From NCBI GenBank assembly GCA_963796685.1, contig CAWCMR010000008.1, positions 384,001-448,000 on the forward strand: DNA of 64,000 nt, read 5' to 3'. The notes below the pieces were generated by a model. The model saw only the letters and a program-made list of their open reading frames with translations. It was not told the DNA's origin and made no database searches. Each line of letters begins with the position of its first letter. Position 1 is the stretch's first letter. Made by a program: the position numbers and the translations under genes. Origin of the DNA: an uncultured delta proteobacterium. Lineage in GTDB: Bacteria > Myxococcota_A > Polyangia > Fen-1088. Below are positions 37,297-60,404 of the stretch, piece after piece.

Positions 37297-37325
37297 AGTG
37301 TCCTTCTAAGGCCAGAACCGGCTCA
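37297..37325 (-). promoter_or_regulatory. Putative ECF promoter TGAGCCG-N17-ACACT for the deacetylase/esterase operon
   Basis: TGAGCCGgttctggccttagaaggACACT, 55 nt before the ATG. Confidence 0.7.
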
Positions 37326-37466
37326 CGCCGGATTGCGCCTAAAACGAGAATTTACGTACTCTTCCAAATCGAGTCGCGAATATCTTCGCATCCCTGGACG
37401 CGAACTCTCATTTCTGACCCAAGGGCGCTTGTTGTGCTTGGCAGTTGGGGATAACCTCGGGCGCGT

Positions 37467-38384
37467 ATGCCCCGAAGACGACGCATCGACTGGTCCGTGA
37501 TCCTGCACAAGGACGATCCCATCCCGGTCTGGGGAGGAAACGAGGCACCGTCGGATACGATCGATCTGCTGCTGGCATGCGGCGACCTCTTGACCCTGAA
37601 CGATCGAGATGCCTTGCTCAAGCGGTCGGTCGAGATCGTGCTGCACACGGTGGGATTGGTCCGGGCCGGTGCCTACCTGCTCGACGAGGAGCTCGATTTG
37701 ATGCTGGGCTCGTGGGGCACCGATATGCGCAGAAAGGTCGTGGACGAGCACCACGCCATGTTCAAGCTCGGCGAGCCAGGCCGTCGCGTGTTCAACCGCG
37801 CGCTATCGGGTGAAGCCCATTGGACCATCGTGGAGAATGTCCCGATCATCATCAACGATGTGAATGAAACGAAGATCATCGGTCATGGGTGGGCCGTGTG
37901 TACCCCCATCCGCTCGGCCCGCACCCCCATCGGCATGCTGTACAACGATGCGGCGCTGACCGGCGAACCGGTGGATCCCCGAAAACAGGAGCGCGGCGCC
38001 ATCGTGTGCACCTTGCTCGGGCTTCGTCTCGAAGCGTTGCGGGGCTCTGCCAAAGCCACCTTCGGTCCCTCGGGGAGACACCCCGCGGTCGCCACGGCAC
38101 TGCGCATGCTCACGAGCGACCCGACCCTGGGTGGCAATGTGATTGCCAAGAAGCTCGGCGTCAGCCTCAGCCGCTTTGCCCGGGTGTTCAAGTCGGACAT
38201 GGGGATCTCCCTGGTGGACTACCGCAATCAGCTGCGTCTCGACCGCTTTCTCGGCCTCGTCGACAAGGGTGGCTCGAACCTGCTCGAAGCCGCGCTGGCC
38301 GCCGGCTTCGGCAGCTATTCCCAGTTCCACCGCGTGTTCCGCGCGCTGCGCGGCACAACCCCGCGGACGTACTTTTCGGGCTAG
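37467..38384 (+). CDS. AraC family regulator with GAF-like N-terminal domain
   Basis: IAKKLGVSLSRFARVFK, AALAAGFGSYSQFHRVF; AVCTPIRSARTPIGMLYND. Confidence 0.88.
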   Translation: MPRRRRIDWSVILHKDDPIPVWGGNEAPSDTIDLLLACGDLLTLNDRDALLKRSVEIVLHTVGLVRAGAYLLDEELDLMLGSWGTDMRRKVVDEHHAMFKLGEPGRRVFNRALSGEAHWTIVENVPIIINDVNETKIIGHGWAVCTPIRSARTPIGMLYNDAALTGEPVDPRKQERGAIVCTLLGLRLEALRGSAKATFGPSGRHPAVATALRMLTSDPTLGGNVIAKKLGVSLSRFARVFKSDMGISLVDYRNQLRLDRFLGLVDKGGSNLLEAALAAGFGSYSQFHRVFRALRGTTPRTYFSG

Positions 38385-38471
38385 CCACCCGGACAACTTG
38401 GGCCAGGAGCATCCGCCAGGGACCTTCGCCAGGCTTGCTGAGTTGACCCTGGCATGGTACGGCAGGCACAC

Positions 38472-40061
38472 ATGGAAATTCGTTTGGAGCAGATCGACCC
38501 CGATGCCTTGCGGGTCGTGCAGCGCTTGCTTCGCTACCAACACAAGGCTTACCTGGTCGGCGGCTGCGTGCGGGACCTTCTCCTCGGTCGCAAACCCAAG
38601 GATTTCGACGTTGCCACGTCGGCGACCCCGAATGAGATTCGACGCTGTTTCCGCAACTGCCGCATCATCGGCCGGCGGTTCAGGCTGGCCCACGTCTTTT
38701 TCGGCCGCAAGATCATCGAAACCGCGACGTTTCGCGCCAATCCGCGGGCCGTGGAAGACGAGCCCAACGAGGTGCCTGCCGAAGACAAGGCCGAAGACAG
38801 AAGCGAAGACAGGAGCGAAGACAGGGCTGAGGCTGAAGGCCGGCCGGAGGACAGGCCTGAAGACAAGCCCGATCGCAAGCCTGATGACAAGCCGAACGAC
38901 CTGCTCATACGCCACGACAACGTCTTTGGCACGGAAGAGGAGGACGCCCGTCGGCGCGATTTCACCATCAACGGGCTGTTCTTCGACGTACAGAGCGCCC
39001 AGGTCATCGACCATGTGGCCGGCCTGCCGGATCTCGAGGGCCGCCTGGTGCGCACCATCGGCGATCCCGATATTCGATTTCGCGAAGATCCCGTGCGCAT
39101 CCTGCGCGCGGTGAAGTTCGCCGCACGCTGCGACCTGACCATCGAAGCCGAGACCTACCGCCGCATGATGGAGCACAAGGCCGAGCTGGCCAAGTGCGCG
39201 CAGGCCCGGGTAACCGAGGAATTCTATCGCCTCCTGCGCGCAGGCGCCGCCCGACGATCGTTCGAGCTGCTGTTCGAAACCGGCTTGCTCGAATTCCTGC
39301 TGCCCGAGATGGCGCAGGCTTGGAAGGCCGGCGACGACGATCCCGAGATCAAGCAGCGCATCGAGCGCTTCTGGGCCTATCTGCGTGCCCTCGACGAATC
39401 GATCGCCACGCACGACCAGCCTCCGTCCGATGCCATGATCCTCGCCACCCTGCTTCTGCCACCCCTGCGCGACGCACTCTCCCCCGACGCCGCGCAGATG
39501 CCGAACATGGCGAAGATCGTGTCCGACTCCGTGCAACCGGTCCTCGATCGCCTGAAGGCCTCGCGCCGCGACTCCGAGCTGTGTCGGCAAATTCTGCTGA
39601 CCCTGCGCTACCTTCTTCCCTCGAACCGTCCCGCGCGTCAGCGCGCTCGGCTCGCCAACCGGCCTTTCTACCAGGATGCCGCGTGGCTTGCCGCCATCGT
39701 CGCCCGCGCGGAAGGACTGGAACCTGCCTCTGCCCTCGATGCAGCGGCGAGCGAGGCGCCGGCAGACGGACCCGCCCCCGAGGAAGAGCTTCCGCCCGAG
39801 CTGCTGGTGGACGTGGACAGCGCATCCGGTCGCGGCCGGCGCGACAGACAGCGAGGGCGTCGGACCGAGACGCCTCCGGCGACGGGAATACCATCCCCCG
39901 TGCGCGAGACGCGCGTCGAAATCGCGGCGTCCTGGCAGGCCGGCCCTCGCGTACGCACGCCCATTCCCAACTTGGAAGACCTGGGTTTCCTGCCCTTGCC
40001 GGGACCGGCCTTTCTCGGCCGAGGCAATTTCGGCAGCCGTTGGGCCGCCCGCTCGGATTAG
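38472..40061 (+). CDS. pcnB: Poly(A) polymerase I
   Basis: LVGGCVRDLLLG..PKDFDV, PAP signature IIGRRFRLAHV, RRDFTINGL, REDPVRILRA. Confidence 0.92.
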   Translation: MEIRLEQIDPDALRVVQRLLRYQHKAYLVGGCVRDLLLGRKPKDFDVATSATPNEIRRCFRNCRIIGRRFRLAHVFFGRKIIETATFRANPRAVEDEPNEVPAEDKAEDRSEDRSEDRAEAEGRPEDRPEDKPDRKPDDKPNDLLIRHDNVFGTEEEDARRRDFTINGLFFDVQSAQVIDHVAGLPDLEGRLVRTIGDPDIRFREDPVRILRAVKFAARCDLTIEAETYRRMMEHKAELAKCAQARVTEEFYRLLRAGAARRSFELLFETGLLEFLLPEMAQAWKAGDDDPEIKQRIERFWAYLRALDESIATHDQPPSDAMILATLLLPPLRDALSPDAAQMPNMAKIVSDSVQPVLDRLKASRRDSELCRQILLTLRYLLPSNRPARQRARLANRPFYQDAAWLAAIVARAEGLEPASALDAAASEAPADGPAPEEELPPELLVDVDSASGRGRRDRQRGRRTETPPATGIPSPVRETRVEIAASWQAGPRVRTPIPNLEDLGFLPLPGPAFLGRGNFGSRWAARSD

Positions 40062-40067
40062 CCGAGA

Positions 40068-40748
40068 CTACCGCCGGTAGCGCGTCGGATCTCGCTGACC
40101 CGCCCGTTCGAAGCCCTGGCGCCGCAAGATGCAGGCATCGCACGCCCCACACGCCTCTCCCTCGCCCGACGGGTCGTAGCACGAAAGCGTGAGCGCGTAG
40201 TCCACGCCAAGCGCGGTTCCGGCGCGGATGATGTCCGCTTTGCTCATGGCCAAGAGGGGAGCCACCAGCTTCACCGGCTGTCCGGAGACCCCAACGTGGG
40301 TGCCCAGGCGCGCGACCTCCTGCATGGCGGAAAGCCACTCGGGACGGCAATCGGGATAGCCAGAATAGTCGAGAGCATTGATTCCGAGCGCGATCTCTTC
40401 CGCGCCCATGGTTTCGGCCAAGGCCAGTGCATGGGCCACGAAAAGCGTGTTGCGGGCCGGAACGTAGGTCACCGGAATCCCCTGTCCGATGGCTTCTTGG
40501 CTGCGTCCCTTGGGCACTTCACCCCGCCCCGTCAGCGCCGAGCCGGCCAGGCACTGGACATCGATGGCACAAATGCGGTGCGAGGCGGCTCCCAGTTTGC
40601 CGGCGATGCTCGCGGCTGCCTCCAGCTCGACTGCGTGCCTTTGCCCGTAGCGAAAGCTGAGGGCGTGACATTGCCTGCCCTGCGCCAGGCACATGGCGAG
40701 CACGGTCGCCGAATCGAGCCCGCCGGAAAGCAACACGATGGTCTGCAT
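40068..40748 (-). CDS. queC: 7-cyano-7-deazaguanine synthase
   Basis: LLSGGLDS, YGQRH, TYVPARN, DYSGYPDCRP, SCY...CGACDAC. Confidence 0.96.
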   Translation of the reverse strand: MQTIVLLSGGLDSATVLAMCLAQGRQCHALSFRYGQRHAVELEAAASIAGKLGAASHRICAIDVQCLAGSALTGRGEVPKGRSQEAIGQGIPVTYVPARNTLFVAHALALAETMGAEEIALGINALDYSGYPDCRPEWLSAMQEVARLGTHVGVSGQPVKLVAPLLAMSKADIIRAGTALGVDYALTLSCYDPSGEGEACGACDACILRRQGFERAGQRDPTRYRR

Positions 40749-40776
40749 GACCCAAGGTTATTGCATACTCGAGCGC

Positions 40777-41619
40777 ATGACGAAGGGCCGCGATCGATTC
40801 TCGCGCAAGGACGCGGAGGCAGGCTGCCGTGAGCCCTTCCTCGACGCCGAGCTTTACGACTACGAGTACCGCCGGCGCCGGGCCGATATCCATTTCTACC
40901 GGCGGCTGGCGCGCAACCGTCTGGAGTTCGCGGCCGGGCCGGTTCTCGATCTGGCTTGCGGCAGCGGCCGCCTGCTGCTGCCCCTAGTGCGCGACGGGCA
41001 CAGCGTGGTGGGCATCGATCGCTCCTCGGAGATGTTGAGCGCGGCGGCGGAACGAATCCGACGCCTGTCCGCGAGCCGCAGGCAACGGTGCACGCTGGTG
41101 CGCGCCGATTTGCGCACGTACCACCTTGTCGCCAAAGCCGGTTTGGCGATCTCCGCCTTCCACAGCGTGCAACACCTCTTGTCCGACGAGGATATCTTGG
41201 CCTTCCTGCGCACCACGCGGGCCAGCCTCGTGCGCGGCGGTTGGCTGGCTTTCGACGTGCTGCCACCGGATCCAGGCTGGCTCGCCCGCGATCCGAGTCG
41301 TCGCTGGGGCCGAACCACCTTCCGCCACCCGCTGACCGGAGAGCGGCTGGTCTACACCGCCAACCACGTCTTCGACCCGACCTCGCGCCTGCTGCACATG
41401 CGACTCTACTACCAACCGGTCGATGACAAGGGACGCCCGTCGAGCCCGGAACGCACCGTCCGCCTTTGCCATCGCCAGCTCTGGCCAGGCGAGATCAGGC
41501 GCCTGTTGGCGGCGTCGGGTTTTCGACCGATCGAAGCCTTCGCGAGCTTCGACGGCACCCTCCTCGTCGACGATTCCCAAGCGGCCGACGAGCACATCTA
41601 CGTGGCCGTGGCGGTGTGA
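40777..41619 (+). CDS. Class I SAM-dependent methyltransferase
   Basis: DIHFY, VLDLACGSGR, VVGIDRS, LVRGGWLAFD. Confidence 0.88.
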   Translation: MTKGRDRFSRKDAEAGCREPFLDAELYDYEYRRRRADIHFYRRLARNRLEFAAGPVLDLACGSGRLLLPLVRDGHSVVGIDRSSEMLSAAAERIRRLSASRRQRCTLVRADLRTYHLVAKAGLAISAFHSVQHLLSDEDILAFLRTTRASLVRGGWLAFDVLPPDPGWLARDPSRRWGRTTFRHPLTGERLVYTANHVFDPTSRLLHMRLYYQPVDDKGRPSSPERTVRLCHRQLWPGEIRRLLAASGFRPIEAFASFDGTLLVDDSQAADEHIYVAVAV

Positions 41620-41644
41620 ACCACGAACCTCCGACGGAAACAGC

Positions 41645-41672
41645 TTGACAGCACTGGGGCCGCAGTTACCAT
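41645..41672 (+). promoter_or_regulatory. Sigma70-like promoter
   Basis: TTGACA-16-TACCAT upstream of 41718; GGAG RBS. Confidence 0.5.
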
Positions 41673-41717
41673 GCGAATGATCTCATTTTCGCCACAACTC
41701 AGACGGAGGGCGGAGTA

Positions 41718-42056
41718 ATGGCCGAGAAAGTCAAGAAGCTAGGGATAACTCGCGACAAGGACTTCATGCTGTATGTGAAAGACGGGGATGTTTGGAGGGT
41801 CCGTCGCAAGCAGCCAGGGGTGTCCAAGGGCAAACCCGAAAAGGTGGCCGACGGCGGGTTCGAGATGGACAACAACTACATCTACTTCGTCGACAGGGAT
41901 GGCGACGTGTCGCGCGCCAAGCGGGCCGTGGGCGGACAGAAGCGCAAGAAGGCCACCAAGAAGAAGGTCGCCAGAAAGCCGGCCAAGAAGAAGGCCGCCA
42001 AGAAGCCGGCCAAGAAGAAGGCCGTCAAGAAGCCGGCCAAGAAGAAGCGACGCTAG
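41718..42056 (+). CDS. Small basic nucleoid protein: CC1-like duplicated domain + histone H1-like KKPAKK tail
   Basis: Internal repeat EKVKKLGITRDKDFMLYV.DGDV / EKVADGGFEMDNNYIYFVDRDGDV; Lys/Ala/Pro tail. Confidence 0.75.
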   Translation: MAEKVKKLGITRDKDFMLYVKDGDVWRVRRKQPGVSKGKPEKVADGGFEMDNNYIYFVDRDGDVSRAKRAVGGQKRKKATKKKVARKPAKKKAAKKPAKKKAVKKPAKKKRR

Positions 42057-42085
42057 TCCGCTGCTGCCGTTCGTGGCCACATCGA

Positions 42086-42130
42086 GTCCCTGACGTTCCC
42101 GCACCCGGATGGGTGCGGGGATCCAGGGAC
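42086..42130. terminator. Strong hairpin downstream of the nucleoid protein gene
   Basis: GTCCCTG..TTCCCGCACCC-GGAT-GGGTGCGGGGA..CAGGGAC; no clear U-tract. Confidence 0.45.
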
Positions 42131-42172
42131 GAAACTACGAAGGCGGCAGACCGCGATTGGAGCGACAGGGGC

Positions 42173-42337
42173 CTAAGGGCTCGTCAGAGAATATCTGCAA
42201 CGATTTGGACGCCGATCCATCCCGGCTGGCTTCGTTGCTCGTCGTCGCAATACGTCGAGTATTCCTCCTCCTCGCGCCTCGCCAGCCGGGCGCCTCGTCG
42301 CCCAACTCGTAGCATCTATTCTCTGACGAGCCCTTAG
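42173..42337 (-). mobile_element. MITE-like inverted-repeat element, copy 2
   Basis: Perfect 21-bp inverted ends CTAAGGGCTCGTCAGAGAATA / TATTCTCTGACGAGCCCTTAG; core shared with 3064-3117; contains the stop codon of 42334..44700. Confidence 0.75.
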
Positions 42338-44700
42338 CGGCGCCGTCGGCGCTTACCGCCGTGCATGCGGCGTTCGAGGCGCTCGCGCCAGATCGGCTGT
42401 GCGGAGGTCCCGTCCTCCGTCGAGTCTTCCTCTGCGGCGACGACCAGCTCTTTCACCTTCTTTGGCTTGACCTCGTCAGTGGCTTTGCCCGTGACCTGGG
42501 TCTTGGCCGGAGCCAGGACTGCTTGCCGGGCGGCCATCATGTCCCAGGCAATCATGACGAACCCGAAGAGCGTCGCCAGGGCCATCCAGGTGTACTGTTC
42601 GTCGAGGCCCGTGGGCATGCCGAAGTTCTTCAGCCCGGCCGCGTTCCGTATCGACGACGGAAGAATCTTCGCCAGCCAATCCGGCATGCCCTGGATGGGC
42701 GCCCAGCCTATGAACTGGGTGAACGCCGTCACCCCCATCAGCCATCTGCCCGCCACCTCGTATCTGGCGTAGAGCAGAGCCACCACGATGAGGAAGGCAT
42801 AGTAGTAGCATGTCAGCTCGGCCCCGAACGCGATCAGGGTCGCGGACAAGGCTGTCGCCACCCACGGATCCTCCCCGCGTACGGCCAAGCCGATGAGCAC
42901 GAGGTAGCAGATGATGATTCCGACGTAGAGGGGCCGCGCTTCGCGGAAGCTCTTCAGGCGGGCCTCCTTCCATCGGCTCCACGGATCCACGAGCTGATCG
43001 TTGCGCATGAGACGTCCGACTTCGGAAGGTCGGTAGTCCAGCACGGTTCGCAAGCCCATGTAGTTGGTCAGCGGGGTTTCCGCGTGCTTGATGGTATTAC
43101 GAAAGAACGCCGGATAGGCTTGCGGTCCGCCCGCGGTCACCACGCTGATGGGCATGAGAATCGCCACCGCCACCGCGGCGCCAATGAAAAAGCGCATGAA
43201 ACGCTTCTCGAGCTCGCGATGCTTGACGTAGTGGTAGCCCGCGGCGAGGAGCGGCGCCACGAACATGAAAACCGGAAAAATGCGCAGCAGGGTCGAGTAC
43301 GCCAGACACATGCCCGCGTAGAAGAAACGCTCCTTCTTGAGCAGGCAGACCGCCGCCACCATCCAGAACAGCCAGTCCCAGCGCAGGAGCGAACCGCCGG
43401 TCCAGTACCAGCGCGAAGGGAAATTGGTGGAAAATACGATGAGCGCCACGGTGAGCGTGCGCCAACCGAAGGCCCACCAGATCATCAACGACAGCAAGAC
43501 GATCAAGATGCAATCGATGCTGTCCAGGATGAGCACCTGGGTTCGACTGGCGGGCCCTAAATTGGTGAGGATGGTGCCCAAGATGTTCCACACCGGCGTA
43601 CCGTTGTACCCGTGGTCGGTCTGGGCGTCATCCCAGCGCCGCGCATTCTCCAGGGTGCGGAAGTAGCGCAGATCGTGTTTGAGGGCTTCCCAGCGCGCGG
43701 GGGTGAAGTGCGATTTGCAACGCTCGGGATGGGCCAAGATGTCGGCGGTGGTTTCAACCACGTTGTTGCGCAAGTTGGTCATCTTGCGCAACTCGACCCG
43801 GCGGCGCAGGTTGGGCTCTTCGCTGTCGGCAACGGCCACGCATTCGTACAAGCGCTCGTAGCTCAGCTCTTTGAAGTACTTCGAGCCGATGTAGTAGTGA
43901 AAGGTGTCCCAGCCGTGGATGAAGTTGGGAAAGTGGAAGGAACCGAAGTTGAAGTAGGTCAAGAAGGCCAGCACCCCCATGACCCCGACGAGCGCGTTGC
44001 GCACGCGCCTTCTCGCCGCCAACCGACCCGCATCGCTCAGCTTGCGCTCCCACCACAGGAACGCAATCCCCAGCATGGCCAGGATGAGCTCCCAGCGCGC
44101 ACTGGCATCGTTGTCCCAGTAGTCGAGCAGTTTCTTGGGCGGTACCGCTGCTACAGGCGCGTCCACGACCTTCATCGCGGCCGGGAATGGCGTCGGCACC
44201 TGGCAGTAGGCCGCAACCTCCGAAATCGAGTAGAAGCTGTCGCCGACGCCCTCGCCCACGCGGATGAAACGCGCCGGCATGCCGCCCACGTTGAGCACCC
44301 GGGTCCGCAAGCCGTGGTTGGGCACGGGATCGATTTGCCCGAACACCTTGTAGTCCTTGCCGTCGAGCGAGCCCCAGACGGTGTAGGTGTCGTTGGCATC
44401 GGCCTGGATGGCGAAAGAGCGCAGGTTGGTGACTTGGCCCAGATCCCAGGTCACGGTCGAGGCGCCGGTGTCCAGGATGACCGCGGGCGCGGAATCCCAC
44501 ATCGAGCCTTCAGGCGTTACTTGCTCGTCGGTGAGCAGGCTCAGCTCGCGTCGCACATCCAGCCACTGGACGGGCAGCTTGTGGGCCAGAAGGTTGCCCT
44601 CGGGACAGGCCGGAACCTGGGAAAGATTTTGAGCGCTCGCCGGTGATGGCGAGGTCAGGAGCAGAAACAGGGGCAAAAGGCCCAGAGCAAGGCGTCGCAT
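42334..44700 (-). CDS. Membrane protein: discoidin (F5/8C)-like domain + GT-C/GT87-like polytopic domain
   Basis: Signal peptide; VTWDLG...GSLDGKDY...ARFIRV...YSISEV; HYYIGSKYF, DHGYNGTPVW, LLRIFP; many TMs. Confidence 0.7.
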   Translation of the reverse strand: MRRLALGLLPLFLLLTSPSPASAQNLSQVPACPEGNLLAHKLPVQWLDVRRELSLLTDEQVTPEGSMWDSAPAVILDTGASTVTWDLGQVTNLRSFAIQADANDTYTVWGSLDGKDYKVFGQIDPVPNHGLRTRVLNVGGMPARFIRVGEGVGDSFYSISEVAAYCQVPTPFPAAMKVVDAPVAAVPPKKLLDYWDNDASARWELILAMLGIAFLWWERKLSDAGRLAARRRVRNALVGVMGVLAFLTYFNFGSFHFPNFIHGWDTFHYYIGSKYFKELSYERLYECVAVADSEEPNLRRRVELRKMTNLRNNVVETTADILAHPERCKSHFTPARWEALKHDLRYFRTLENARRWDDAQTDHGYNGTPVWNILGTILTNLGPASRTQVLILDSIDCILIVLLSLMIWWAFGWRTLTVALIVFSTNFPSRWYWTGGSLLRWDWLFWMVAAVCLLKKERFFYAGMCLAYSTLLRIFPVFMFVAPLLAAGYHYVKHRELEKRFMRFFIGAAVAVAILMPISVVTAGGPQAYPAFFRNTIKHAETPLTNYMGLRTVLDYRPSEVGRLMRNDQLVDPWSRWKEARLKSFREARPLYVGIIICYLVLIGLAVRGEDPWVATALSATLIAFGAELTCYYYAFLIVVALLYARYEVAGRWLMGVTAFTQFIGWAPIQGMPDWLAKILPSSIRNAAGLKNFGMPTGLDEQYTWMALATLFGFVMIAWDMMAARQAVLAPAKTQVTGKATDEVKPKKVKELVVAAEEDSTEDGTSAQPIWRERLERRMHGGKRRRRR

Positions 44701-44706
44701 GACCGC

Positions 44707-45291
44707 TCAGTCTATCCTGCTCGTGGCCTCGGCGTAACCTGCCGAGAACACCTTCGTGTAACCCAGCGCACTGTAGTATCCGGCGGCGATTCCCAACCCT
44801 ACCGCCAGGCGCCCTAAATGCCCGAGGTAAGGCTCGGCCGCCGGCACGAGCGCGCTGATGGATAGATAGGTAGGAAAGAAACCCCACATGATGAGGTTGG
44901 TCTTCACCTTGCCGGCCAGGCTGCTCGGAATGTTCATGCGCGCCCCGGCCATGAATCGGCGCAGGCACGTGACCCAGAACTCCCGGAACAGGTACAGGAA
45001 GATGATGTACGGGGGAAAGAAGCCTTGCAAGGTCGCGATGATGAGGATGAACGCCTCGAAGCAGAGGTCGCAGAACTGGTCCAGGATCTCACCCAGCCGG
45101 GTGACCTGCTTGGTGCGGCGGGCGATGTACCCGTCGAGGTAGTCGGTCACGCCGGCCAGAATCGCGAGCGCGATGCCGACGCCGTGCGACACGTAGAAGT
45201 ACACCAACACACCCAGCCAAAGAAGCACGATTCGCGACAACGTAATGATGTTCGGTAAGGTCCGAAGGTCATCCCTGATGGTCGAGCCCAT
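44707..45291 (-). CDS. pgsA: CDP-alcohol phosphatidyltransferase (PgsA-like)
   Basis: LPNIITLSRI, DYLDGYIARRTKQVTRLGEILDQFCD signature, GKVKT. Confidence 0.88.
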   Translation of the reverse strand: MGSTIRDDLRTLPNIITLSRIVLLWLGVLVYFYVSHGVGIALAILAGVTDYLDGYIARRTKQVTRLGEILDQFCDLCFEAFILIIATLQGFFPPYIIFLYLFREFWVTCLRRFMAGARMNIPSSLAGKVKTNLIMWGFFPTYLSISALVPAAEPYLGHLGRLAVGLGIAAGYYSALGYTKVFSAGYAEATSRID

Positions 45292-45358
45292 GGCCCTTTG
45301 ATACCACGAACGGGCCCCGGATTGGCCGAACTGGTCCTCCTGCCTGTACTCTTAGGGG

Positions 45359-46684
45359 ATGTTGAACCCGAGCACGGCTCTACTCCTGGCCGCCCTGATG
45401 GTCATGGCCAACGCCTTCTTCGTGGCCTCCGAGTTCGCCATCGTGAAGATCCGACCCACCCGGGTCAAAGAACTGGCATCGGGCGGCGGGCGACGCGCCC
45501 GGATCTTGTCGAGCGTGACCCGCCGCCTCGACCGGTATCTCTCGGCCAACCAACTCGGCGTTACCCTCGCCTCGCTGGCCTTGGGATGGGTCGGTGAGCC
45601 TGCCTTCGCCTACCTCATCCACCCCTACATGACCTGGCTTGGCCGCCTGACTGGCGCCGCCACGCATTCTCTGGCCCTCGGGTGCAGCTTCGTCGTCATC
45701 ACCTTCTTGCACGCCGTGCTGGGCGAGCTTGTTCCCAAGGCCATCGCCCTGCAGAAGGCCGAGCTGGTGGCGCTGTGGGCCGTGCTTCCCCTGCGCGTCT
45801 TCGCCATCGTGGCATTCCCCTTCATCTGGGCCTTGACCGCGACGGCCAATCTCTTCTTGCGCATGCTTCGGCTTCACCCCGCCTCGGGCGCCGAGATGTT
45901 GCACTCGTCGGACGAGCTGCGCCTGGTGCTTCAACACGTCGAGCTGGATCCCGGCGCCCGCCGCCTGATCGACCGCGTGTTCGACTACACCCACCGGGTC
46001 GCCCGCCACGTGATGACCCTGCGGCGCGATGTCTCGGTCCTGGAGGAAGGCAGGCCCTGGCGCGAAAACATCGAGATCGCCCTGGCCAACCAGTACACGC
46101 GCTACCCGCTGGTCGAGCCCGGCACCGATAGGGTGCTCGGCTACATCCACATGAAGGACATGATGGCGGCGTTGGCCTCGGGGAACGAGCCCAAGCGCAT
46201 GCGCGAGCTGGCGCGCGAGCCCATCTACTGCTCCGAGGAGACCCCGAGCGAGTGGCTGCGCCGCGAGTTCCAGCGCCGGCGCGTGCACATGTCCATCGTG
46301 CTCGGGGCCGGCAACACCTTCGTCGGCGTCGTGACCCTGGAGGATCTGCTCGAGGAATTCGTGGGCGAGATCCAAGACGAGCAAGACGTGGGCGAGATCC
46401 AGCCCATCGTGCGCGGCACCGAGGGGCGCTTCGAGGTGGACGGCCGACTGACCCTGGACGTTGCCGAGCGCGAGCTTGGCGTCGTGTTGCCGGAGATGCC
46501 ACCCGAGATCGACACCCTGGGCGCCTACGTACAGTCCCACCTGGCCCCGCCCCTGCGCCCGGGTCGCGGCGTGGAGATCGCGGGGTTCCGCTTCACCACC
46601 ATCGAGATCCGCGATGGCCGCATCCGCCGCTTGCGCGGCGAGCCCCTTCCGCGCGAGGTCGGCGAGGACTCAGGAGAAGGTTGA
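45359..46684 (+). CDS. Hemolysin/CNNM family protein (DUF21 + CBS pair + CorC)
   Basis: NAFFVASEFA, QLGVTLASLALGWVGEP, GELVPK, YTRYP, VTLEDLLEEFVGEIQDE. Confidence 0.93.
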   Translation: MLNPSTALLLAALMVMANAFFVASEFAIVKIRPTRVKELASGGGRRARILSSVTRRLDRYLSANQLGVTLASLALGWVGEPAFAYLIHPYMTWLGRLTGAATHSLALGCSFVVITFLHAVLGELVPKAIALQKAELVALWAVLPLRVFAIVAFPFIWALTATANLFLRMLRLHPASGAEMLHSSDELRLVLQHVELDPGARRLIDRVFDYTHRVARHVMTLRRDVSVLEEGRPWRENIEIALANQYTRYPLVEPGTDRVLGYIHMKDMMAALASGNEPKRMRELAREPIYCSEETPSEWLRREFQRRRVHMSIVLGAGNTFVGVVTLEDLLEEFVGEIQDEQDVGEIQPIVRGTEGRFEVDGRLTLDVAERELGVVLPEMPPEIDTLGAYVQSHLAPPLRPGRGVEIAGFRFTTIEIRDGRIRRLRGEPLPREVGEDSGEG

Positions 46685-46707
46685 GCCCGTCTTCGCCCAC
46701 GCTTCCG

Positions 46708-47608
46708 CTATAGACCGTCGGCCTTGAACCGCCTCGGCGTCACCCCGAAGCTCTTGCGAAACACCTTGCCGAAGTAGTTCGGGCTGCTGAAGCCGCATCG
46801 ATACGCCATGTCCTTGAGCGAGTACCCGCCGGTCCGGATCAGGTTCGTCGCGTGCTCCAAACGCAAGCGAAGGAGATAGCGGGCCGGGGACGTTCCCCAG
46901 ACCTTGCGAAACTTGCGCGAGAAATGGAACTTGCTCAATTTCGCGACCTGCGCCATCTCGCCGACCCCGATGGGGCGTGCGAGATTCTGACGGCAATAGG
47001 CCTCGACTTCGCCGACGAACGGAGGCGCAGCCCGCGATGGACGCGCCGGAGCATCCGCATGCGACCTACTCTCGTTCAAGAGCTCCATGAGAACGGCATA
47101 GGCAAGCCTCGAGCCGTGGTAAGGCGACTCGATCTTGTGCTCCAGGCCGTCCGCACACGCTTCGGCCGCGCGTGCCAGCGTCGGCGAGTCGGCCGGCAAT
47201 TCCACGATTGGGCCCACCTTGTCGGCAATTCCTCGAATGCACCTGATCACCTCCCTGCCGGCAAGGGTGAGGTAGAAGAACTCCCATTGCTCGCCCTCCT
47301 CGATCCAGCACTGCTCTTCGTGCGGGAAGTAGAGCAACATGGCCTGTCCTGGCTCGACCGACACCTGCCGCTCGAAGAAAGCGCACGTGCCCGCGCCCGC
47401 TCACGGTGTATTGAATGGCGGCCAGTCCGCCGCTGCTCCCCTGCAGACCGCTCCACTTCTGGCTGGGTCCCTTCCCGACCTGGAACCCCACGCTGTGAAT
47501 CTGCGCCGGCAGCGACGCCACCAAGTCCGGAAACACCATGGATTCCTGGTGCCCAAGCTTCTGGAGCCGCGCGATGCCTGGCACACCTGAAACATCACAC
47601 CTGGACAT
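46708..47608 (-). pseudogene. AraC family regulator, +1 frameshift near 47375-47380 (299 aa if corrected)
   Basis: RBS GGAGGAG + ATG 47608; QYTVSGRGHVRF|ERQVSVEPGQAMLL cupin split across frames; C-terminal HTH GFSSPNYFGKVF. Confidence 0.75.
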
Positions 47609-47702
47609 GGCGCTCCTCCAAGAATGTCCTGAGAACGAACAGACGGATCTTCATGGAAACCTCCTCGGGATCGGAACTGTCGCGGACCTGAAACAAGCAC
47701 AT

Positions 47703-47731
47703 AGTGTCCACGTGGGGCACATTTCGGCTCA
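47703..47731 (-). promoter_or_regulatory. Putative ECF promoter TGAGCCG-N17-ACACT for the AraC gene
   Basis: TGAGCCGaaatgtgccccacgtggACACT. Confidence 0.7.
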
Positions 47732-47817
47732 TGCGGATCCGGTTTCGAATCCGATTTCATGGGATGGGGGACGTGACCGAGCGCAATCGCGGAACGGCCC
47801 GCTGCCGAGGTGAGTCG

Positions 47818-49513
47818 CTATTTCGTGAACAGCGTCAAGTCGACCGTCTCGCCCATCTTCTGATAGCCAGCAGGCCCCGGGTGAAGTCCATCTGTTGACC
47901 CTGCTGGATTCCCCGGGGTCCAAGCGGCGTAGGTCGACTGCAACGCCGGAGGACTCTTGCCATCCGTGAGCGCGGCATCGAAATCGATGACGCCGTCGAA
48001 CACCCCGCTCTTGATATATGTGTTGACCTGTTGGCGGACGCTCTCATGACCCGAGCTGTAGTAGCTGTTCCCGTAAAATGGAGTAATGGTTGCTCCGAAG
48101 ATGAGCACACCCTTTGCGTGTGCCTGGCTGATTAGCTGGTCGTAGGCAGCTTTCAGGGAATCGAATGTGGCGTTATTGCTACAGATGTCGTTGACTCCAT
48201 CGAAAACGACCGCGTACTTCACGCCGCTTTGCCCGAGCACGTCGCGCGCGAAGCGACCTTCAGCTCCGGTGCCGTTCCCAATCAGATTGGTCGCGCCGAT
48301 CCCCTGATTCATGGTCGCGACGTTCGCGGTGGCGGCGTTCGCCTGTAGCCGTGCGGCCATGAAGTCCGTCCACCGGTTGTTCTTGTCGTTGTCCGTTCCC
48401 CTGCCGTCGGTGATGGAATCGCCAATCGCGACGACGCCCTTGGCGGAGGCATCGGCCATGACGTCGATGCCCGAGATGTAGTACCAGTGCTGGAACGTCG
48501 TCGCGGATGTCATGCTGGCCGCGTTGAGAGCGGTGCTGCCGCCTGCCAGGTAGGACGTGGTCCTCGAGCCCGAGTGGCCGACGACCTGGCTCGGCACGCT
48601 CCCGAAGGACGTGGTGATGGTAATGTTCCCTTGATTGGGGACGATGAAGTCAATCGGGTCGGACCAGACTTCCTTGTTCTGTGCGATGGTCACCGAGGCG
48701 GTTCCCGAGAAGGCAAGGGCCTTGTCGGTCGAGGTATCGATGGTGCTGTCCACGGTCGGAGTGGCCTTGCAAAGCGCGATATGGGCCGAATTGATGGTGA
48801 CCGATCCATTGCCTCCCAGGTTGGAAAATTGCACGCGAAGCTGGCTGCCACCCAGTGAGACGTGCGTGACCTGACGAAGCACGCTATTCGCCAGCGACGA
48901 CGGAGGCTGGTTGCCCGAATCGTAGTACGGCGAGGCGGTCCAAGTGCCCACCCAGTGCTGCGTTCCCGTGCCGCCGCCCGTCCCGGAGCTACCACCCGAG
49001 CCACCTCCGTCCGCACCGCCCGTTGCCCCGCCAGCGCCACTGGCGCCGCCGGTTGATTTGGTTCCGCCGCTGCCCGCGCCGCCGGACCCGGTCGTGCCAC
49101 CCAATCCTGATGCTCCGCCGCTGCCGCTCGAATCCAGCCATGCCGCCCGCGCCCGAACCACCGTTTCCACCGCCCGCGCCGCCGGCCTTCGAGTTTCCGC
49201 CCTGCCCGCCACCCCCCGTGCCTCCGCCCCCGGCGCTGCCACCTGTTGCACTCCCGCCCTGCCCTGAGGCCCCGGCCGAGGCCTGACCGCCCGAACCCGT
49301 CGTGCCGCCAGCCGAGACACCGCCCGAACCGGAGACACCCCCTGTCGTGCTGCCACCGTGGCCGGATCCACCGTGGCTGCTGGACGCACCAGCCCCTCCA
49401 CCGCTGCCACCGCCCTTCCCGCCTTCGCCGCCGGAGCCGCCACCGTTTGAAGAGCAGCCGACCAGCAACGCGGCGGTAGCAAGGACACGCAACACACTTC
49501 GACTGCTGCTCAT
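47818..49513 (-). pseudogene. SGNH/GDSL hydrolase lipoprotein with Gly-rich linker, +1 frameshift near 49131 (564 aa if corrected)
   Basis: RBS AGGAGG; lipobox LVGC and Gly linker in one frame; HWVGTW, GDSITDG, GVND, DGLHP in the other; GGMAG|SSGSGG joins on removing one base. Confidence 0.8.
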
Positions 49514-49575
49514 CAGACGGATCCTCCTGGGCTTGGGCGAAATCGAGCCATGGCGACCGCAGATTATTCTCGGCC

Positions 49576-49604
49576 AGTGTCCGCGAGTAGCACTTTCCGG
49601 CTCA
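49576..49604 (-). promoter_or_regulatory. Putative ECF promoter TGAGCCG-N17-ACACT for the SGNH gene
   Basis: TGAGCCGgaaagtgctactcgcggACACT. Confidence 0.7.
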
Positions 49605-49657
49605 TGCGATGTCCAGCCGCAAGGGTGTACGCCGCGCAACGACGGCGCGCCGACCGC

Positions 49658-50365
49658 TCAAGGCTCGAAGCGCAAGTCGTCGATCCAGATGTCGAACTGC
49701 TGGCGTGGGTAGATGATGAAGCCGACCAGCTGATCGCGTCGCATGGGGACCAGGGGGTTGCCGAAACCGCTTTGCGCCATCTGATTGAAGCGAATCACGA
49801 AACGCTGCCAGCTGTGAGAAAGCGGAACCTTCGCGGCATAGAAATCCATGCACACCGTGCATCCGCCGCTGTTCCAGGCGTTATCCATGGTCGTCAGCCC
49901 CATGGGCACCGCGAATTCGGGGCCATTGTCGCTGCCAAAGGCGGCCCAGAATGAAATACCGCTCCACTTGCTTCCGTCGTAGGGCAACGCGGTGGAGCTG
50001 CTGCTACGAAAAACAGCGGTCCAGTTGTTGCCCCAGCTCGTGAAGCCCCTGGCCGCAAAGTGGCCGGAGAACTTTCCGCGAGCCACACACTGCGGCGAAA
50101 CCTCGTCGATGAGCTTGCCCGAAGAGCCATCCGAGCCGAGAATCCATGAGCCGTCCCTCCCTGAAACCTGGGCGAGGCGATAGTCCCCGGATTCGAAGTC
50201 GTCGATGAGGCGATCGGCGGGTTCGGCTGCGTAGCTTTCAGGTCCACGCAACGGCTGATCCGGACAGACGGGGTCGACTTCGATCGGCTCCACTGAAGGG
50301 CCGCATCCGAGGCAGATCTGTACTGCGACGAGCACGAAAACGCACGTAGCACCCCAACGTACCAT
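49658..50365 (-). CDS. CBM11/galactose-binding-like lipoprotein
   Basis: Lipobox CLGC; LIDDFESGD, YDGSKWSGISFWA, WQRFVIRF..M.Q.GFG, DIWIDDLRF. Confidence 0.75.
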   Translation of the reverse strand: MVRWGATCVFVLVAVQICLGCGPSVEPIEVDPVCPDQPLRGPESYAAEPADRLIDDFESGDYRLAQVSGRDGSWILGSDGSSGKLIDEVSPQCVARGKFSGHFAARGFTSWGNNWTAVFRSSSSTALPYDGSKWSGISFWAAFGSDNGPEFAVPMGLTTMDNAWNSGGCTVCMDFYAAKVPLSHSWQRFVIRFNQMAQSGFGNPLVPMRRDQLVGFIIYPRQQFDIWIDDLRFEP

Positions 50366-50443
50366 TGTGGACTGAGCCGATCAGGCTTGACGTTGAGACT
50401 ACACAGGATGTCGCGGAAGCGGTAGGGAGAATGGATGCGAGCG

Positions 50444-50472
50444 TGAGCCGGTTTCATCTCCTGGGGAACACT
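50444..50472 (+). promoter_or_regulatory. Putative ECF autoregulatory promoter for sigma 1
   Basis: TGAGCCGgtttcatctcctggggaACACT. Confidence 0.7.
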
Positions 50473-50521
50473 GCCGAATGAATCGAAAGAAGATTACCGG
50501 ACCCAAGAAGACTGCCGGAAG

Positions 50522-51133
50522 ATGCTTACGCCCTTAACCTTCGTCGGTGACGAGCACGCGCTGTTGCAGGCGCTGCGCGCCGGACACCCCGGTGCCGCCG
50601 CGACGTTCTATGACCAGCACGCCGCACACGTGAGCCGAACCCTGCGTTCGGCGCTCGGGGCCGACGAGGAAATTCCGGACCTGCTGCAGGAAGTCTTCAT
50701 TCGGGCCATCGACGGCATCGGCAAGTTGCGCGAGGTCGACCGCGTTGGCGGTTGGCTGACCACCATCGCGATCTTCGTGGCGCGCGCCCAGATACGACGA
50801 CGCGCGCGCCGCAGTTGGCTTCGCGCGTTTTCGCCCGAGCACGCCGGCCCGCAACATCAAGAACAGCCCTCATCGGAAGCGCGCGCCGCACTCCGCGAGG
50901 TCTACGCCGTTCTGGGACAGATCCCCCTCGACGAACGCATGGCATTCACCCTGCGGTACATCGAAGGAATGACCCTACCGGACGCGGCAGAGGCCTGTGA
51001 GACCTCGCTGGCCACATTCAAGCGCAGGCTATCACGCGCCGAAAAACGATTCCTTGAAGCGGCCAGCAAGCGGCCGGTCCTGGAACAATGGCTGAAGGAA
51101 GGGACGCGATGGAACGTCCAGAAAAAGAGCTAG
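50522..51133 (+). CDS. ECF sigma factor 1
   Basis: Region 2 DLLQEVFIRA...GWLTTIA; region 4 LPDAAEACETSLATFKRRLSRA. Confidence 0.92.
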   Translation: MLTPLTFVGDEHALLQALRAGHPGAAATFYDQHAAHVSRTLRSALGADEEIPDLLQEVFIRAIDGIGKLREVDRVGGWLTTIAIFVARAQIRRRARRSWLRAFSPEHAGPQHQEQPSSEARAALREVYAVLGQIPLDERMAFTLRYIEGMTLPDAAEACETSLATFKRRLSRAEKRFLEAASKRPVLEQWLKEGTRWNVQKKS

Positions 51134-52335
51134 CCGAATTCGGATCAGCGGTACGCGAGGCGCTCACGGGCGAGGCCTCGACGAGCGAAGAGATCCGGCA
51201 AGCGCGCGCCGGATTCCTTCAGCATTTCGCCGCGGGCGGCAAAGCAGACGCCGGGTGGGGACGCCGAACCGAGGGGCGCCGCTGGCGCTTTTGGGCGCTT
51301 GCCGGAGCGACGATCGCAGGGGCCGTGGCGCTATGGGCATGGACCACCCGCCCCATCACCTTCCAGGTCGGGGCGTCGGGCACCCCCGGCCAGACCGGCG
51401 ACCTCGTGCGCGGCGCCTCCGAAGGACTGGTCCCGATACGCTTCTCCGAGGGAAGCTCGGTCATTCTGCATGAGGGCACCCGCCTGCGAGTGCTGGCCAC
51501 TGACAACCGCGGCGCACGCATGCTGATCGAGGATGGCACGGTGGATGCGAGCATCGCCAGCGCGACCATCGGCAAGAAGCACTGGAGCTTCGAAGCGGGA
51601 CCCTTCAAGGTCCAGGTGACCGGTACCCGGTTCACGCTGACCTACCGGGCGCATGACCAGTCTTTCGGTCTCGCGACCCACGAGGGGCGGGTCATCGTCT
51701 CGGGCCCTTGCCTAATCGCACCGACGCCCGTGGCGGCGGGTAGCCGACTGGATCTGTCGTGCCTGGCCCGGCGACCGATGGCCCTCCAAACGGCGAGCCT
51801 GTCGCCGCTCCCGTCGGCCGGAACCGAGCACACGGATATCCCCGCGTCGTCGGACAAGGCCGTGCGCACCCCCCAAAGCTGGCGCGAGCTGCTGGCAACC
51901 GGACACCTGCTGGACGCGGTGCGCGCCGCCGAGCGAGCCGATTTCAATCGCGTGTGCCAGACCGCGAGCGCGAAGGATCTGCTGGCTTTGGCCGACGCTG
52001 CCCGGCTTTTCGCGCGCACGGCGAGAGCGGTCACTGCCCTAAGCGCGTTGCGTCGTCGCTTTCCTGCCTCGTCCGAGGCTTCCACCGCGGCCTTCGCGCT
52101 CGGACGCATCGCCTTCGAGCAGAAGCGCGACTACCCGGAGGCCGTCGATTGGTTCACGACCTACCTGCACGAACAGCCTGGCGGGCCGCTACACGGTGAC
52201 TGCGTTGGACGCCTGATGGAGGCCAAGCTTCGTGCAGGCGACCAAGGCGGGGCGCATGCGGATGCGGAACATTACTTGCGCCGATTCCCGGAAGGGCCCT
52301 ACGCTTCGGAAGCGCGAGGCATTCTGGCGAAGTGA
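51109..52335 (+). CDS. FecR-domain transmembrane anti-sigma with C-terminal TPR (copy 1)
   Basis: TM WALAGATIAGAVALWAW; FSEGSSV, AGPFKVQVTGTRF, EGRVIV; AAFALGR...YLRRFPEGPYA. Confidence 0.85.
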   Translation: MERPEKELAEFGSAVREALTGEASTSEEIRQARAGFLQHFAAGGKADAGWGRRTEGRRWRFWALAGATIAGAVALWAWTTRPITFQVGASGTPGQTGDLVRGASEGLVPIRFSEGSSVILHEGTRLRVLATDNRGARMLIEDGTVDASIASATIGKKHWSFEAGPFKVQVTGTRFTLTYRAHDQSFGLATHEGRVIVSGPCLIAPTPVAAGSRLDLSCLARRPMALQTASLSPLPSAGTEHTDIPASSDKAVRTPQSWRELLATGHLLDAVRAAERADFNRVCQTASAKDLLALADAARLFARTARAVTALSALRRRFPASSEASTAAFALGRIAFEQKRDYPEAVDWFTTYLHEQPGGPLHGDCVGRLMEAKLRAGDQGGAHADAEHYLRRFPEGPYASEARGILAK

Positions 52336-53381
52336 GACGCGATCGCTCCAAACCACCGTGGCGTGGATTCGTCGGGGCCAGGTCTGTCCTGGTCCTGGCG
52401 GCGGCGTTGTCCATCGCCAGCGCGATCCCGGTCGCGGCGCGCGCCGAGGAACCTCAGGCGCTGCGTGTTCTGCTGATCATCGACCGACCCAACGACCCCC
52501 TGATGGCTCGCATCCAGGCCGAGATCGTCGCGCTTGGGCTCACGGTGGTGAGCAGCAGCGCAAGCGGTCCCCTCGAAATCAGCGCACGCGAGCAACGCGC
52601 GGTCGCGGCGGTACGTGAGTTGCCTTCGCACAAGGGTGTCGAGTTATGGATGGCGGATGTGACGACCGGCCGCACGCTCACGCGGCAGCTCATCGTGGAC
52701 GAGCAGCCGGAGGGACCGGATCAAACCCTCGTGGCCATGCAGACCGCAGAGGTCCTGCGCACCGGGCTCTTCCCCAAAGCGAACAAAGCCGTGTCAGGGT
52801 CTGCAAGCGCGCCCGCGACGCCGTCGCCCCCCATCACGACGCCGGCCGCCCCGGCACCAACCGAGGAGACCCGGGTCCGGGCCGGCATCGGCGGCCTGTA
52901 CAGCCTCGGCGGTGCGGACACCGCGCTGCAGGCCTGGCTCTCGCTGCAGCGACGCTGGCGGCACCGTCTCCACATCGCCCTCACCTTGAGCGGGCCGATT
53001 GTCCGTGGCTCGATTTCTGGACCAGAGGGGCGCTCTTTAGTTGGGGCCTACCTGGCCGGCGCCGAGCTTCGTTTCAGCTTTCTCAAAGACGATCCGCACT
53101 GGTTGCTGACCGGTGGCTTGGGTGGCGGCGTCGCCGACCTCCGCACCGAGGGACGCAGCAACCAGCCCCTCGAACAGGCAACGTCGAGCGCTTTCACGGG
53201 CGTGGGCTACGCCCTGGTCGAGCTGGGCTTGAAGCTCTCGACCTCGGCGCGGCTTGGCATTGCGGGGACCGCGGGCACCACCTTCGCGCCCGTGACCATT
53301 CGCTTCGCAGGCAACCACGCAGGCACCTGGGGTAGCCTGCTGCTGGCGATGTTCATGCAGCTCGGCATGGACTGGGAATAG
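52332..53381 (+). CDS. Secreted protein: periplasmic domain + Pro linker + putative small OM beta-barrel (copy 1)
   Basis: Signal peptide (AARA), Pro-rich linker, alternating hydrophobic strands, ends QLGMDWE. Confidence 0.7.
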   Translation: MRRDRSKPPWRGFVGARSVLVLAAALSIASAIPVAARAEEPQALRVLLIIDRPNDPLMARIQAEIVALGLTVVSSSASGPLEISAREQRAVAAVRELPSHKGVELWMADVTTGRTLTRQLIVDEQPEGPDQTLVAMQTAEVLRTGLFPKANKAVSGSASAPATPSPPITTPAAPAPTEETRVRAGIGGLYSLGGADTALQAWLSLQRRWRHRLHIALTLSGPIVRGSISGPEGRSLVGAYLAGAELRFSFLKDDPHWLLTGGLGGGVADLRTEGRSNQPLEQATSSAFTGVGYALVELGLKLSTSARLGIAGTAGTTFAPVTIRFAGNHAGTWGSLLLAMFMQLGMDWE

Positions 53382-53408
53382 AAACACCTTGCAGAAGGAA
53401 TGAGACCT

Positions 53409-53437
53409 TGAGCCGTTTTGCCGCGCTTGCGGACACT
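53409..53437 (+). promoter_or_regulatory. Putative ECF autoregulatory promoter for sigma 2
   Basis: TGAGCCGttttgccgcgcttgcggACACT. Confidence 0.7.
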
Positions 53438-53480
53438 TCCAAGGGGGGGCCAAGGGGCCTCTTCCCTGGTCCGGTGAAGG

Positions 53481-57465: not shown

Positions 57466-57468
57466 CGG

Positions 57469-59562: not shown

Positions 59563-59666
59563 GGGGATGCCGGTCGCGCATATTGGACAGGTTTCGAACG
59601 AATGCCTCGCCAGTGCCTCATCGTCCTTGAAGTCGGCGCATCGGGGGATCTAGTCTCTGTTGCTTC

Positions 59667-60384: not shown

Positions 60385-60404
60385 AGGGCGTCTGAAAAGT
60401 GCGT

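Follow-up and report, generated by a model that had tools for sequence, protein, structure and literature searches.

A predicted two-box promoter and a small outer-membrane barrel suggest a variant of ECF cell-surface signaling in uncultured Polyangia

Introduction

The published group closest to the system described here is ECF267, a set of Polyangia-type myxobacterial extracytoplasmic function (ECF) sigma factors. In the available part of its description (Casas-Pastor et al., 2021; PMC7826278), an anti-sigma factor resembling FecR and fused to tetratricopeptide repeats (TPRs) is encoded at position +1, no TonB-dependent receptor lies nearby, the promoter is reported not to be conserved, and one to three protein kinases are encoded in the neighborhood. 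Here, we examine a 64,000-nucleotide (nt) stretch of DNA (the window; positions 384,001 to 448,000 of GenBank contig CAWCMR010000008.1, our contig C8) from the genome of an uncultured delta proteobacterium of the Polyangia (G000; 7.3 Mb, 65% GC). Five exact copies of a two-box motif, TGAGCCG-N17-ACACT (where N17 is a 17-nt spacer), precede two ECF sigma genes, genes for secreted carbohydrate esterases and hydrolases, and the gene of an AraC-family regulator. Comparison across genomes makes it very probable that this motif is the promoter of the sigma 1 clade, driving the sigma operon and a small regulon.

The family resembles ECF267 in its type of sigma factor, in the fused anti-sigma factor at +1 and in its neighborhood, since Pfam found no TonB-dependent receptor family among the open reading frames (ORFs) scanned between 26.5 and 63.4 kb of the window. 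Unlike the published group, it has a strongly conserved promoter and a barrel gene after the anti-sigma gene, and no protein kinase turned up in the scanned window ORFs around the cassette. Because the promoter and kinase features differ from the published group description, we call the family ECF267-like and do not file it as ECF267. Kinase-like ORFs were seen by eye near some homologs (loci L084 and L112).

Other systems share parts of this design. In FecA/FecR/FecI and FoxA/FoxR/FoxI, as far as the available text of PMC11637429 goes, an outer-membrane protein with an N-terminal periplasmic domain is likewise combined with a single-pass FecR anti-sigma factor and an ECF sigma factor, and the periplasmic domain contacts the C-terminus of the anti-sigma factor, a contact that is modeled here. 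The Fec and Fox transducers are TonB-dependent transporters with an STN-STN contact, whereas the present locus has a small OmpA/OmpW-like barrel without a plug, a modeled TPR contact and a predicted output of carbohydrate-active enzymes (CAZymes). The accessible portion of PMC6056542 describes, for Sigma-I/RsgI of Clostridium thermocellum, paralogous autoregulated sigma factors for polysaccharide-degrading genes, whose promoters share a core and restrict cross-talk through a part that varies. That system is Gram-positive, belongs to another sigma family, carries its sensor module on the anti-sigma factor and uses promoters with an A-tract and CGAA, specificity residing upstream of the A-tract; in our case, sensing would fall to a separate lipoprotein beyond an outer membrane, and the variable part would be the spacer and a T-tract. 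Finally, DdvS/DdvA of Myxococcus xanthus, in the part of PMC11506125 available, pairs a myxobacterial ECF sigma factor with a single-pass anti-sigma factor bearing periplasmic TPRs. DdvA differs in having a CHAT domain, for which our Pfam and NCBIfam scans gave no match here, and a zinc-bound cytoplasmic domain, and in controlling a defense island.

Little has been described of how cellulolytic and soil myxobacteria fit the many CAZymes they secrete to the substrate, and our literature search found no paper on this matching. Outside subscription papers, the ECF group hidden Markov models and the datasets of PMC7776599, it also found no paper on this promoter. The available parts of PMC7776599, PMC8999054, PMC12093494 and PMC9249621 contain nothing on this sigma family, and those of the myxobacterial CAZyme survey among them (PMC12093494) no passage on sigma factors.

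Results

Five two-box sites in the window precede sigma and CAZyme genes

The exact motif occurs five times in the window, compared with a mean of 0.01 and a largest count of 1 in 100 dinucleotide shuffles of the same DNA. All five sites are intergenic and in sense orientation, and each is a predicted ECF promoter: of genes for carbohydrate esterases of families CE4 and CE1 (37297..37325, minus strand; kept in the related genomes G001 and G002), of the AraC gene (47703..47731, minus), of an SGNH lipoprotein gene (49576..49604, minus) and, with putative autoregulation, of sigma 1 (50444..50472, plus) and sigma 2 (53409..53437, plus). The boxes of the AraC and SGNH sites are kept in G002, and the motif of the sigma 1 promoter recurs before 19 of 21 sigma loci with at least 53% identity. 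Scored with a matrix built from other genomes, the sigma 2 site ranks first in the genome. From the last motif base to the start codon we measured 55 nt for CE4, 94 for AraC, 49 for sigma 1 and 43 for sigma 2 (91 nt to the sigma 2 ATG that aligns with the sigma 1 start); for the SGNH gene the distance is 62 nt to the ATG at 49513, the start that yields a lipoprotein signal peptide. The second box reads GGACACT in four of the five sites, and a run of A or T follows the first box in all five. On these points an earlier, sequence-only reading of the window held up: the sites have the coordinates and strands that it gave, they stand ahead of genes at gaps of 43-94 nt, the box details are as it described them, and its gene labels are backed by Pfam (Polysacc_deac_1, Esterase_PHB, HTH_18/AraC, Lipase_GDSL_2, and Sigma70_r2 with r4_2).

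That reading had also called the 17-nt spacer invariant, which is true of the five window sites. Across G000, exact boxes occur six times at N17 (five of these in the window), four times at N15, twice at N16, once at N18 and a single time over the remaining spacers between 5 and 35 nt, so the spacer is not invariant genome-wide. A degenerate copy that it had pointed out, TGAGCCG-N16-AGACT at 50373..50400 (plus), is present, and G002 retains it with one change, but its role is doubtful. Its second box is the reverse complement of a TAGTCT box preceding the divergent lipoprotein gene, and thus overlaps the −10-like box of that gene; since G001 keeps the TAGTCT box while the first box of the copy is absent there, the copy may be an accident of overlap.

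The motif accompanies one sigma clade across genomes

Our comparison set comprised 61 genomes of the family, 12 of which contain the sigma clade (at least 53% identity to the sigma factor), and a class-wide footprinting set comprised 72 homologous sigma loci. Exact N17 sites were found in 11 of the 12 clade genomes vs. 8 of the 49 others, and the 10 exact matches outside the clade were no excess over a reversed-pattern control (18 matches). The site lies directly before the sigma gene in 10 of the 12 clade genomes, spanning five genera, and the other two have one-step variants. Two genomes of the same genus, G004 (99% complete) and G012 (95%), have neither the sigma gene nor an N17 site. With a spacer-blind matrix, trained on the same sigma loci on which it was scored, 47 of the 72 loci reached the threshold score of 13 in sense orientation. 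The antisense count was 6 of 72, and 9 of 600 random genes also reached that score. A gene for a FecR-TPR protein follows 71 of the 72 sigma genes, and the lone exception also lacks the motif. One 60%-identical sigma gene (L033, in G008) has neither anti-sigma gene nor motif, sits on a long branch and is possibly decaying.

Constraint on the boxes is also evident at the targets. Four sites are syntenic in G002, with no changes in the boxes and 3 (CE4), 4 (AraC), 4 (SGNH) and 0 changes in the spacers, and in G001 the CE4-CE1 orthologs retain the N17 site on a different contig from the sigma gene. The proposal that the motif is the bipartite promoter of these ECF sigma factors is thus supported by phylogenetic footprints, by its co-occurrence with the sigma clade and by its conservation at targets that are not linked to the sigma gene. 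The motif is two-part, has 16-18 nt spacing and is conserved ahead of the sigma genes' own start, as in the ECF (group 4) type, and sigma 1 and sigma 2 also have the layout of that group, with regions 2 and 4 only and about 200 residues. Both sigma genes had been placed in one regulon, and the motif does precede each; G002 has one such sigma factor, no second cassette and 7 exact sites, so sigma 2 is dispensable in that sister genome.

A start triplet lies in frame 5-10 nt past the motif in 12 of the 47 sigma promoters, other distances ranging from 0 to 155 nt. At L099, L189, L166 and L167 the start codon lies 7 nt past ACACT, which would suit leaderless transcripts.

Spacer length and a T-tract divide the family

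A quick tree places the 21 sigma loci with at least 53% identity on a single branch (SH-aLRT branch support 84). Their best match is at N17 in 19 cases (one also readable as N15), at N16 in one, and absent in one, whereas N16 is best in 22 of the 27 scoring loci below 53% identity. The same division appears in whole genomes, with exact N17 and N16 sites in a ratio of 29:13 in the 12 clade genomes and 10:67 in the 49 others. Altogether there are 80 exact N16 sites in 36 of the 61 genomes (control, 13). T is found at positions 9-11 in 86-95% of 21 N17 promoters vs. 17-26% of 23 N16 promoters. Among 50 of the 80 N16 sites examined, 43 were intergenic with the next gene in sense orientation and none with it in antisense, 6 were in coding DNA and 1 had no gene; 34 of the 43 genes behind them were scanned, yielding 10 pectate lyases and 12 proteins without a family. 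From these comparisons, the two boxes are best read as a family-wide signature, with the distant paralogs mostly using a 16-nt spacer and no T-tract. The length of the sigma linker did not differ between the N16 and N17 classes, so specificity through the spacer stays hypothetical.

Several N15 and N16 sites of G000 lie in settings of their own. Locus L108 (C25:140000-160000) has two paralogous cassettes with N16 sites amid genes for GH9-CBM3, GH10, alpha-fucosidase and AraC proteins. In L104 (C21), back-to-back N15 sites at 594-683 point at an SGNH gene on the plus strand and toward the contig end on the minus strand, and a GH43 gene is convergent with the SGNH gene. An exact N15 site at L100 232-258 (C5:362631), which precedes an ORF encoding HD and Cas3 C-terminal domains, may be chance.

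The predicted regulon is small and scattered over the genome

We scanned G000 with a matrix trained only on the sigma promoters of other genomes (cut-off score 20). Nine N17 matches passed, 8 of them intergenic and in sense orientation, compared with 4 of 19 at control spacers (8-14 and 19-29 nt). Four of the eight are window sites; the others precede genes for a lipoprotein with an FGE-sulfatase-like domain, a CE15 esterase, a beta-helix protein and what is probably a phosphate-binding protein, and this last site may be there by chance. The fifth window site, before the SGNH gene, has an A-run in place of the T-tract; with this T-tract matrix it therefore scores below 19 and misses the cut. 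The clade genomes hold 13 non-sigma sites, one an identical copy, and 9 of the 12 examined point at a secreted protein, a CAZyme (CE4, CE15, GH5, GH12 or GH28) or an AraC regulator; of the remaining three, one is in coding DNA, one abuts an integrase gene and one has no gene called. A block of G001 some 650 kb from the sigma gene carries four N17 variants, with two AraC genes, a gene for an arylsulfotransferase-like lipoprotein, and a CE15 esterase gene followed by an SGNH gene. Genes for secreted proteins with a Gly-rich linker are enriched for the site (7 of 152 vs. 13 of 5540 other genes), in a count whose antisense control is not clean, as divergent genes share upstream DNA. Gene calls in this and the other scripted counts came from a simple caller that misplaces the starts of Gly-rich proteins.

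On this evidence, the predicted regulon is small and genome-wide, with about nine N17 sites and targets of the CE4, CE1, SGNH, CE15 and AraC types. The idea that one regulon joins the two gene blocks of the window is supported by the shared motif, but its targets extend beyond the window. Those within it are a CE4-type polysaccharide deacetylase lipoprotein (35796..37241, minus; Pfam), a secreted esterase of the polyhydroxybutyrate (PHB)-depolymerase/CE1 type (34197..35762, minus; Pfam and NCBIfam), the AraC-family regulator (46708..47608, minus; Pfam) and an SGNH/GDSL hydrolase lipoprotein with a Gly-rich linker (47818..49513, minus; Pfam). In this assembly the AraC gene is frameshifted (it is one open frame in the sister genome G002) and the SGNH gene has a frameshift within the linker. 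The AraC gene had been taken as a second regulatory tier. It does stand under the motif, as do AraC homologs with N17 variants upstream (2 of 3 in G001 and 1 of 2 in G009), but close AraC homologs occur in only 5 of the 61 genomes, all of one genus, which restricts the link. A second AraC gene (37467-38384, plus) is divergent from the CE4 promoter, an arrangement that recurs in G001 and G002.

Each sigma gene heads a cassette with an anti-sigma factor and a small barrel

A sigma-first run of three genes (sigma, anti-sigma and barrel) occurs seven times in G000, two of them in the window. The barrel and CBM11-like genes, which supply the likely input, did not figure in the sequence-only reading. 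ECF sigma 1 (203 residues; 50522..51133, plus) matches Pfam Sigma70_r2 and r4_2, and of the NCBIfam models shown, the ECF superfamily model alone passes its cut-off. Sigma 2 (53481..54140, plus) is 66% identical and has the same region 4.2 helix. Anti-sigma 1 (51109..52335, plus) consists of a short N-terminal part, one transmembrane helix (about residues 61-79), a FecR domain and TPRs; anti-sigma 2 (54116..55375, plus) is 52% identical to it.

Outer-membrane protein 1 (349 residues; 52332..53381, plus) matched no Pfam or NCBIfam family. Its structure model (predicted local distance difference test, pLDDT, 88, from 142 sequences) shows a signal peptide, a periplasmic alpha/beta domain (residues 43-148), a Pro-containing linker and an OmpA/OmpW-like barrel (180-348). 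The barrel superimposes on NspA and OmpW with Z-scores of 17.7 and 17.6 and root-mean-square deviations of 2.8 and 2.6 Å over 152 and 169 residues, and the periplasmic domain resembles the anticodon-binding fold of histidyl-tRNA synthetase (Z about 10, 2.6 Å, 87 residues). Alignments of the barrel and lipoprotein families against Protein Data Bank sequences gave nothing meaningful. The names of 10 barrel homologs were hypothetical or none, and the family numbers 2030 clusters at 50% identity (E up to 1e-10). Outer-membrane protein 2 (55372..56466, plus) is 40% identical to protein 1.

A model of the complex between the periplasmic domain of the barrel protein and the anti-sigma TPR scored 0.62, whereas the best of 3 controls scored 0.00. 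Among solved complexes 116 of 157 attain that score, as do 2 of 215 mismatched pairs; the calibration holds only roughly here, because our own alignments were used. Runs agreed in at least 53% of contacts, with partner pLDDT of at least 77. In two of the closest modeled pairs, D296-R60 and R368-E140, the anti-sigma residues are kept in 13 of 13 sequences and the barrel residues in 128 of 142 and 141 of 142. The modeling supports binding of the anti-sigma TPRs by the barrel protein's periplasmic domain.

A CBM11-fold lipoprotein is a candidate glycan sensor

Divergent from sigma 1 lies the gene for lipoprotein 1 (49658..50365, minus), a candidate glycan sensor whose model (pLDDT 85) has the beta-sandwich fold of CtCBM11, a family 11 carbohydrate-binding module (CBM): the top Foldseek matches are to C. 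thermocellum CBM11 (E 7.5e-8). The protein has no Pfam match, and 2 of 120 listed homologs are named family 11 by their source. The gene is present in 11 of the 12 clade genomes vs. 0 of the 49 others (E 1e-40), and in relatives it adjoins the cassette, in most cases in a tail-to-tail arrangement with the barrel gene. The fourth genes of the L108 cassettes encode esterase-like or fucosidase lipoproteins, unlike the CBM11-fold protein.

A paralog, lipoprotein 2 (59667..60395, plus; frameshifted near its 3′ end in this assembly), is probably the fourth member of cassette 2, relocated by an inversion, because G002 has neither cassette 2 nor lipoprotein 2 and the intervening block is inverted. This block (56513-59586; aldolase and aldolase/short-chain dehydrogenase genes), inverted relative to G002, parts the second barrel gene from lipoprotein 2.

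The ECF motif precedes the lipoprotein gene in 0 of 14 loci (best score 9.5). A sigma-70-like pattern, matched before lipoprotein 2 as TTGAAG-N18-TAGTCT (59627..59656, plus), is found before 8 of 14 lipoprotein homologs vs. 85 of 5692 called genes, a comparison in which the pattern was read off these same sequences. Together, the missing ECF motif and the sigma-70-like pattern would fit a sensor that is present before induction. A scan of 46000-57000 for the sigma-70 consensus gave 0 sites vs. 0.9 expected.

Other features of the window

An ISL3-family transposase gene lies at 24945-26207 (minus). The region 30835-33954 (minus) encodes a TPR protein with membrane segments, then Cys-rich lipoprotein-like genes, and a large ORF at 26504-28699 (plus) resembles that TPR protein; the frames of both look broken in this assembly. 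Between convergent genes, an inverted repeat at 42173-42337 has 43-nt arms that are 86% complementary and 79 nt apart. An Rfam search of 30000-62000 gave no match, and no RNA runs were found.

Discussion

We propose that the sigma 1 clade, including sigma 2, recognizes TGAGCCG(nTTT) as its −35 and (GG)ACACT as its −10 element. It would transcribe the operon of the sigma gene itself and a small, dispersed regulon whose products are secreted carbohydrate esterases and hydrolases, most of them with a lipid anchor, together with an AraC regulator. A CBM11-like lipoprotein, expressed from its own sigma-70-like promoter, would bind a glucan or a breakdown product, and the barrel would relay this signal by an altered contact with the TPRs, upon which the anti-sigma factor would be cut or released, as in FecR-type systems, and the sigma factor freed. 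[quoted passage not shown] The complete relay, from lipoprotein to freed sigma factor, has in our judgment an even chance of being right; promoter, regulon and glycan relay taken together are probably the best explanation of the locus.

The most serious challenge to a clade-specific promoter is that the whole paralog family reads the motif, in which case the five sites would not be specific to sigma 1 and sigma 2 and the spacer would carry no real specificity. The same boxes do precede distant paralogs class-wide, several G000 paralogs have N15-N17 versions, region 4.2 is near-identical in N16 and N17 sigma factors, the distance between the sigma2 and sigma4 domains is mostly 60 residues in both, and ECF promoters are commonly scored at 16-18 nt spacers (available part of PMC7776599). 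We nonetheless consider this unlikely, given the concentration of N17 in 19 of 21 loci of a single branch (SH-aLRT 84, quick tree), the reversal of the N17:N16 ratio from 29:13 in clade genomes to 10:67 elsewhere, and the T-tract at positions 9-11 (86-95% of N17 vs. 17-26% of N16 promoters). Slightly less likely still is that promoter and regulon are correct but respond to envelope stress or to touching prey or a surface rather than to a glycan, the barrel-TPR contact being structural. Small barrels are often structural, the closest solved structure to the anti-sigma TPR is CpoB (E 5.7e-5), and some targets lack a CAZyme domain; on the other hand, most targets assignable to a family are CAZymes, and the product of the fourth gene is folded like CBM11, as a glycan signal would lead one to expect.

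It is improbable that the sites bind another regulator, such as the neighboring AraC protein, and precede sigma genes by chance. Two AraC genes adjoin window sites and their homologs recur by sites within the genus, yet close AraC homologs are confined to that genus (5 of 61 genomes), while the motif precedes sigma genes in five genera and class-wide; moreover, the site is asymmetric, in sense orientation and spaced like a promoter, and several copies end 7-12 nt before a start codon. We give hardly any credence to the sites being insertion-sequence ends or remnants of a local duplication. A few matches elsewhere do abut integrase-core genes as identical copies (two in G001; a variant in G000 C25), and we presume these integrase-adjacent copies to be comparable to insertion-sequence ends. 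In the window, by contrast, the five spacers are unrelated, there is no inward-facing pair, no site takes part in any of the 25 longest inverted repeats, the ORFs scanned from 26.5 to 63.4 kb gave no transposase, and spacers and flanks vary around constant boxes, which largely refutes insertion-sequence ends for these five sites. Motif-like elements ending by integrase-core genes were seen at L058 2638 and at G000 C25:11790.

Against the proposal of a clade-specific promoter, a CAZyme regulon and a glycan relay stand the following points. At the level of the promoter, 25 of the 72 sigma loci score below 13, these boxes could also be read by at least 5 further cassettes of G000, and related genomes are not independent, so that the co-occurrence counts overstate significance. 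The loose pattern TGAGCC-N16-19-CACT, counted in 31 genomes, was not above its reversed control in most, and we do not count it as support. Some N17 matches precede unrelated genes (phosphate-binding-like and GAPDH-like), and others lie in coding DNA or beside integrase genes. With only 7 of 152 Gly-linker genes carrying a site, the motif is not a general CAZyme switch, and the CE1-type esterase, which passes the NCBIfam cut-off for extracellular polyhydroxyalkanoate (PHA) depolymerase, may be such an enzyme. As for the relay, the interface residues, taken together, hardly exceed the remainder of the domain in conservation (0.57 vs. 0.52), the CBM11 fold match is at 15% identity and shows no ligand, and the co-occurrence of the lipoprotein with the clade may be due to linkage alone.

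Taken with these reservations, our results suggest a new variant of cell-surface signaling, with a readable promoter and a small barrel in place of the usual transporter. Tentatively, the Polyangia may possess a large family of TonB-independent signaling cassettes for polysaccharide degradation, in which a lectin-like lipoprotein and a barrel would sense, the TPR would be held, and paralogs would be kept apart by a one-base difference in spacer and a T-tract (N17 for esterases and glucanases, N16 mostly for pectate lyases). This would fill two gaps in the closest published group, the promoter and the outer-membrane partner, and, if true, a transducer that is not a transporter widens the known design of cell-surface signaling. 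A readable promoter would make regulons predictable in uncultured genomes, and the question could be put to the test in a heterologous host.

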